A stretch of 1,085 nt of DNA from Escherichia coli (GTDB lineage: Bacteria > Pseudomonadota > Gammaproteobacteria > Enterobacterales > Enterobacteriaceae), in assembly GCF_003334815.1 (NCBI RefSeq), contig NZ_QOWO01000108.1; one strand, 5' to 3'. Position numbers and translations under genes: made by a program. Below the pieces are notes generated by a model. It had not been told where the DNA came from. It ran no database searches and worked only from the letters and a program-made list of their open reading frames with translations. Of the stretch, positions 879 to 1,085 are shown piece after piece (the first letter of the stretch is position 1; every line of letters starts with the position of its first letter).

Positions 879-1085
879 CCAGAGGCGGTCGAACTCCGCC
901 TTCGCAAAATAAGCGGAAGCCTGGCGAAGAATATCGTTACTGCGGCGCAGTTCACGATTTTCACGTTCCAGCTCTTTCAGACGCTGACGTTCAGCGCTGG
1001 TGAGCCCACCATCACCGCCCCCGGTATCCCGCTCATGCTGGCGAACCCAGACACGCAGAGTCTCCGGCGTACAGCCAATCTTTGG
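870..1085 (-). CDS. IS3-family transposase OrfA (DNA-binding / leucine-zipper subunit), 5'-partial: 71 codons plus TGA stop at 870-872; start codon beyond position 1085
   Basis: Hand translation of the minus strand from 1085 down to 870: [72 protein letters not shown] heptad repeat L-x6-L-x6-L-x6-F falls at codons 969-971, 948-950, 927-929 and 906-908, consistent with the leucine-zipper multimerisation region of IS3-family OrfA. The frame is open across the whole segment to the window edge. It is missing from the supplied ORF track because it has no start codon inside the window. Confidence 0.9.

Follow-up and report, generated by a model that had tools for sequence, protein, structure and literature searches.

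In the IS3 family, the leucine zippers of IS911 and IS2 are required for oligomerisation, for binding to DNA (the inverted repeats) and for transposition (PMC3219604; PMC2909936). The IS911 zipper mediates homo- and hetero-multimerisation, according to the work of Haren et al. (1998, 2000) as it is cited in PMC2909936 and PMC3219604. In IS2, point mutations at the leucines of position d or at the asparagine of position a abolish both DNA binding and transposition, and the zippers found elsewhere in the family are also atypical (PMC3219604). [quoted passage not shown] Stimulatory structures of this kind begin 4–10 nt after the slippery motif; U_UU.Y is an established shifty tetramer, U_UU.C and U_UU.U ranking second and third in efficiency among tetramers in E. 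coli, and it predominates in the tetramer-using IS3/IS1 elements (PMC4066793).

The stretch of DNA analysed here (the window, 1,085 nucleotides) is the interior of an IS3-family insertion sequence of the IS629/IS1203/IS3411 type. It corresponds, on its minus strand, to nucleotides 166–1250 of an element of 1310 bp and is 100% identical to copies in plasmid pAA of E. coli 042 and in two chromosomes. The RefSeq label of these identical copies is 'IS3 family transposase, programmed frameshift', accompanied by an 'AL1L pseudoknot' feature. Both ends of the element lie outside the window, and its length and inverted repeats were read from the identical copy on pAA (locus L001), which measures 1310 bp, within the range of about 1.2–1.5 kb expected in the family, and has imperfect 25-nt inverted repeats (TGAACCGCCCCGG...) that begin with TG and are 88% complementary. 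IS629, IS1203 and IS3411 belong to the IS51-like subgroup of the IS3 family, are likewise 1310 bp long and are known from E. coli and Shigella; the window is the same element. PGAP gives the name 'IS3-like element IS1203 family transposase' to plasmid copies whose OrfA is identical, and members of the cluster go by IS629 OrfA or OrfB. The PDB entry 2RN7, 'IS629 orfA', matches OrfA with E=1e-55, and the fusion protein scores 369 bits against the NCBIfam model NF033516 (transpos_IS3), for which the cutoff is 160. Only few amino-acid differences separate the IS629 alleles from the window: in the PDB allele these are L76P and Q92L, and that of O157 shows 99% identity. Of 5426 complete E. coli genomes, 4223 contain similar sequence, at a median of 4 places per genome and at up to 51. 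There is thus nothing new in the presence of the element, the zipper or the ALIL frameshift signal, as all three have been described before, and the layout, being the textbook domain order of a very abundant insertion sequence of E. coli and Shigella, carries little weight as a discovery. The sequence-only reading of this DNA had called the zipper expected family architecture rather than a novelty; we agree, the zipper of IS629/IS1203 being already described. On pAA, the L001 copy is bordered by a ParA gene and, at its other end, by the pet toxin gene with a remnant of IS1414. Its flanks (CGT at 1333–1335 versus GTC at 2646–2648) present no target duplication of 3–4 bp; the IS1414 remnant adjoins the element, and the flanks may be rearranged. 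This suggests that the surroundings of L001 are a rearranged cluster of insertion sequences.

The coordinates of the main features are listed in Table 1. Residue numbers follow the full OrfA of 108 aa, which was read from L001 (1390–1716). HTH_Tnp_1 (Pfam PF01527) matches residues 1–87 of this protein with E=8e-12, and the window itself holds only residues 38–108. This match and the transpos_IS3 score given above bear out the earlier assignment of the heptad repeat to an IS3-family OrfA. The two frames overlap by 22 codons (orfA end at 872–870, -1 frame open from 936), and the first AUGs of the orfB frame are at 873–871 and 870–868. In the 404-aa fusion, Pfam places HTH_21 at residues 156–212 (window 732–562, E=4e-17) and the rve (DDE) core, PF00665, at residues 235–331 (window 495–205, E=8e-26), rve_3 and rve_2 also matching.

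Table 1. Features of the window, in the numbering of the whole stretch
Feature	Positions	Strand	Details
orfA, 3' part (codons 38–108 and stop UGA 872–870)	870..1085	-	Translation; the first 37 codons are not in the window
Single long helix of free OrfA, residues 67–107 (predicted)	876..998	-	AlphaFold2 single-sequence model; preceded by a Gly-rich linker, 58–66
Leucine-zipper heptads	906..980	-	a: L73, N80, N87, S94; d: L76, L83, L90, F97
orfB frame, -1 relative to orfA	1..936	-	Translation; open just after TAA 939–937, runs off the window edge
Slippery tetramer U_UUU	906..909	-	Last base of Y96 (UAU) and the F97 codon UUU; proposed main -1 site
ALIL stem-loop 1	884..900	-	Stem GGCGG/CCGCC, apical loop AGUUCGA (895–889)
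A6 run and orfA stop (AAAAAAUGA)	870..878	-	A6 at 878–873; slip site presumed in the sequence-only reading
ALIL stem-loop 2	799..838	-	Rfam RF01497 match

We consider it highly probable that a single explanation accounts for these features, namely an element of the IS629/IS1203 type with a leucine-zipper-like helix in OrfA and an ALIL-driven -1 slip on the F97 codon. In OrfA, a three-helix HTH domain that binds DNA would be joined by a glycine-rich linker to one long helix. This helix would be a leucine-zipper-like multimerisation motif through which OrfA and OrfAB could form homo- and hetero-oligomers, as proposed by homology with IS911 and IS2. The transposase OrfAB would be made by -1 ribosomal frameshifting at U_UUU (909–906), the slip being stimulated by the ALIL pseudoknot starting 4–5 nt downstream. 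In OrfAB, a Gly-Gly/Pro-Pro hinge would end the helix and connect it to the HTH_21 domain and the DDE catalytic domain. Stem-loop 1 would then be constrained in three ways: by its base pairing as RNA, as the coding sequence of the OrfA tail and as that of the OrfAB hinge.

The repeat is made up of the codons CTG 971–969 (L76), CTG 950–948 (L83), CTT 929–927 (L90) and TTT 908–906 (F97). The sequence-only reading had reported exactly these positions, as verified in the minus-strand translation of 1085–870. L73 (980–978) is located three residues N-terminal of L76. With L73 at position a, the register therefore has L76, L83, L90 and F97 at d, that is, a large hydrophobic residue at this position in four consecutive heptads. 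At position a, only L73 was found to be hydrophobic, N80, N87 and S94 being polar. Pairs of opposite charge at g and e' are formed by R72–E77 and E79–R84. In composition-preserving shuffles of OrfA (200,000 sequences), the strict pattern L-x6-L-x6-L-x6-[LIVMF] was present in 0.41%. A home-made amphipathicity score, calculated as hydrophobic residues at a/d minus those elsewhere in a 28-residue window and cruder than the strict pattern, was not significant, 23% of the shuffles reaching the value of OrfA. The value is ordinary because of the polar residues N80, N87 and S94 at position a. The conservation of the repeat was examined in 46 representative homologues with less than 75% identity, in which the four d positions are L in 44/46, L in 44/46, L in 42/46 and F in 42/46. 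In the same set, a87 is N in 44/46 and a80 is N in 26/46 or V in 17/46. Four plasmid relatives with 40–50% identity, from Pseudonocardia, Streptomyces, Acinetobacter and Kozakia, keep [L/M]-x6-L-x6-L-x6-F together with N87.

It could be argued that a charged helix containing leucines shows the heptad by chance: four positions alone define it, about 0.4% of the shuffles have it, and many such helices occur per proteome. Such an accident would nevertheless have to be shared by 42–44 of the 46 diverged homologues and by Actinomycete relatives with 40% identity, at the same position as the characterised zipper of the family. We regard it as extremely improbable, and as effectively already refuted by the conservation seen in the alignments. 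It is to be noted that the whole segment 72–104 is highly conserved, not the a/d positions alone, so that a/d-specific selection is not separable. As the segment also encodes RNA signals and a second frame, the conservation at d is no specific proof of a zipper. The heptad is found at the site of the published leucine zipper of the family (PMC3219604; bioRxiv 10.1101/2023.06.07.543989), as had been claimed from the letters alone. Searched with phmmer against PDB sequences, the zipper segment gave no bZIP or coiled-coil relatives beyond 2RN7, and the only Pfam zipper match for OrfA was a sub-threshold one to the TSC22 zipper (E=0.18).

The closest parallel is provided by IS911, in which, as here, four heptads follow the HTH domain, and the frameshift lies within the last heptad, so that the first three heptads are common to OrfA and OrfAB, which then differ. 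IS911 belongs, however, to another subgroup and uses an A_AAA_AAG heptamer with a branched stem-loop, whereas the present element has U_UUU and the ALIL pseudoknot. In addition, the a positions here are mostly polar (N, N, S), and the zipper is known from its sequence. IS2 shares with this element an atypical zipper with a buried asparagine at a and g–e' salt bridges. The arrangement is reversed between the two: IS2 has leucine at 2/4 d positions and three hydrophobic a positions, whereas here all d positions are hydrophobic and a is mostly polar. The bZIP proteins of the GCN4 type also resemble this segment, with leucine at d every seven residues, asparagine at a and opposite charges at g and e'. 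GCN4 has, in contrast, a single asparagine at a among Val/Leu, where OrfA has two Asn and one Ser, and its basic region is contiguous with the zipper, while the HTH domain of OrfA is set apart by a Gly linker; there is no homology between them. Based on the homology with the characterised members of the family, we infer that the zipper mediates oligomerisation in OrfA and OrfAB of the IS629 type. The polar residues at three of the four a positions (N, N, S) argue for a weak and perhaps exchangeable interface, and an isolated dimer would probably be weak.

The AlphaFold2 single-sequence model of OrfA predicts helices at residues 9–21, 26–40 and 44–57, constituting the HTH domain, and the long helix is predicted to run unbroken across the heptads, with a pLDDT of 93–96 over residues 71–100. 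Compared with the PDB by Foldseek, this model gave only weak homeodomain-like matches (E>0.6); a model of OrfAB residues 1–200 recovers 2RN7. This entry, the NMR structure of Shigella flexneri TnpE (IS629 orfA), is the only solved structure, and it differs from the window by L76P (971–969), a proline at the first zipper leucine, and by Q92L (923–921). The 2RN7 allele is probably a decayed copy, and because of its L76P change it is no guide to zipper dimerisation. A different role for the helix was also considered, in which the conserved leucine face packs on the HTH bundle, on the M/HTH_21 region or on DNA, and the helix is no dimerising coiled coil; the heptad spacing would then mark no more than one face of a helix. 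The polar residues N80, N87 and S94 at a and the chance-level amphipathicity score would fit this, as would the IS2 precedent, whose equivalent motif scored zero on 2ZIP (PMC3219604). The homologous segment nevertheless mediates oligomerisation in IS911 and IS2 by experiment, as reported in the accounts cited above. Moreover, Asn at a combined with g–e' salt bridges is the classical signature of a parallel dimer, and the long helix projects free of the HTH bundle in both AlphaFold models, that of OrfA and that of OrfAB. We therefore consider such packing unlikely and keep the multimerising zipper as the preferred role of the helix.

With regard to the frameshift, the Rfam model RF01497 (ALIL pseudoknot) matches 915–799 on the minus strand over its full length (model positions 1–117), with 120.2 bits and E=1.8e-32, the gathering threshold being 50 bits. 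The match starts with CGCUUAUUUUGC, its 5' end extending over the codons with which the zipper closes (A95-Y96-F97). The zero-frame reading at the U-run is GCU UAU UUU GCG, and stem-loop 1 begins 4–5 nt 3' of U_UUU; the U-run is the only candidate that fits the 4–10 nt spacing to stem-loop 1. In the loop-loop helix of the pseudoknot, the apical loop of stem-loop 1 (GUUCGA, 894–889) and a complementary internal loop in stem-loop 2 (UCGGAC, 833–828) form 6 pairs, including one G-U. Across 7 loci (54–63% OrfA identity), the structure is 92% paired versus 32–41% in slid controls, the helix of stem-loop 1 being 97% paired and the pseudoknot helix 97.6% paired. Compensatory changes occur in 5 pairs, one of which, C-G to U-A in the pseudoknot helix, is in the window itself as compared with its relatives. 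When the 121-nt region was folded by itself, its minimum free energy did not reach significance (z=-1.4). The support for the RNA structure therefore comes from the covariance model and the covariation, and not from folding energy. An ALIL signal was found in 10/10 relatives examined, at about 46–121 bits. U_UUU, U_UUC, U_UUU_UUU or U_UUU_UUC is present at the F97 codon in 10 of 11 loci, even at a GC3 of 0.7–0.85, and the eleventh locus has U_UUC one codon earlier. In NCBI, the fusion ...SAYF/CEGGVRPP... is found verbatim as 'IS3 family transposase' in 16 contigs. Conservation, spacing and annotation thus place the -1 slip, as judged from sequence comparison, most likely on the F97 codon, the last codon of the zipper. 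For annotation, this means that the OrfAB junction belongs at F97 (...SAYF/CEGG...) and not at the poly-A run. Among the relatives, the Streptomyces chartreusis plasmid locus L009 (682–810) has an ALIL score of 45.9, compared to the threshold of 50, UUC UUC in place of UAU/UUU UUY, and one codon deleted after the Phe pair. It is possibly a decaying copy, or it shifts one codon earlier.

The sequence-only reading had located the slip about 10 codons after F97, on the A6 run (878–873). OrfAB would in that case keep 107–108 residues of OrfA and the entire helix, with the zipper ending some 10 codons before the junction. In favour of the A6 run are its place directly 5' of the orfA stop codon, a -1 frame that stays open through it, and the shiftiness, weak but genuine, of the tetramer A_AA.A (PMC4066793). 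The comparison with other loci does not favour this position. The conserved tetramer U_UU[U/C] is the F97 codon, whereas the A6 run is absent in 10/10 relatives (L002–L011), which have AAG AAA UGA, AAA CGA UAA, AAG UGA, AAC UGA, etc. at this place. There is also no RNA structure 4–10 nt 3' of A6, stem-loop 2 starting 34 nt away, and a ribosome at A6 has already melted stem-loop 1. Since A6 lies 3' of stem-loop 1, the ALIL pseudoknot would be unable to act there. Finally, the corresponding fusion ...LWKK/MMPLL... is absent from a 15-billion-protein collection, in which the U_UUU fusion is present. A main frameshift on A6 is thus very unlikely. Chen and Hu are said to have observed, in 2006, two frameshift products for IS629. 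The A6 run may therefore be used too, at most as a second, minor and lineage-specific slip site.

With the slip at F97, the sequences of OrfA and OrfAB coincide through this residue; they have three leucine heptads in common and diverge from the fourth on. After F97, OrfAB reads CEGGVRPP, while OrfA stays helical (predicted up to residue 107). Stem-loop 1 encodes A-E-F-D-R in the OrfA frame versus G-G-V-R-P-P in the OrfAB frame. In the relatives, the same nucleotides give A-[Q/K]-A-E-[L/F]-D-R in the OrfA frame, and [C/R]-x-G-G-x-R-P-P is kept in the -1 frame because it is what stem-loop 1 translates to. One stem of 17 nt thus codes for an extension of the helix in OrfA (AxAELDR) and, in OrfAB, for a Gly-Gly/Pro-Pro stretch that is predicted to break it. 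In the AlphaFold model of OrfAB, based on an 8-sequence alignment, the helix covers residues 67–94 and is followed by coil (95–105) and by a second helix (106–120). The earlier statement that the fusion keeps the whole zipper is consequently correct for L76, L83, L90 and F97, which are all retained, and incorrect for the helix, which AlphaFold predicts at 67–107 in OrfA and cut to 67–94 in OrfAB. OrfB alone, starting at the AUG 873–871, lacks the zipper, as had been foreseen. The segment 915–799 is under three overlapping constraints (the zipper end with the OrfA tail, the OrfAB hinge and the ALIL pseudoknot), and its strong conservation is therefore not evidence for the zipper alone.

More tentatively, the frameshift in the ALIL subgroup could operate as a switch on zipper length, the OrfA zipper being about 1.5 heptads longer than that of the transposase; we consider this possible, though doubtful at present. 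If true, the longer OrfA zipper could bias assembly toward OrfA-containing, inhibitory heteromers, and a lineage-specific A6 site would add a transposase isoform with a long zipper. The principle of a zipper-length switch is known for IS911; the triple overlap of RNA signal and two reading frames in IS629-like elements may not have been stated so far.

Several minor observations concern the sequences around the two frames. A conserved AGG is located at 919–923 (minus strand), 10 nt upstream of the U-run, in the context CAG GCU here and AAG GCN in relatives L002–L007. From this distance, elements resembling a Shine-Dalgarno sequence promote -1 frameshifting in dnaX and IS911. The motif is only 3–4 nt long and encodes conserved residues too, so that it is at most a candidate for such a role. 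A scan for promoters and terminators gave matches at chance level only. No ORF on the plus strand exceeds 58 aa, and an ORF of 36 codons in the third (+1) frame over the zipper-coding region (854–964, minus strand), being without support, was treated as chance. At 868–878 on the minus strand (AAAAAAUGAUG), the orfA stop UGA (872–870) overlaps two AUGs of the -1 frame. An AUG overlapping or abutting the orfA stop was also found in 6/7 relatives, which suggests a termination-reinitiation coupling for the synthesis of free OrfB.
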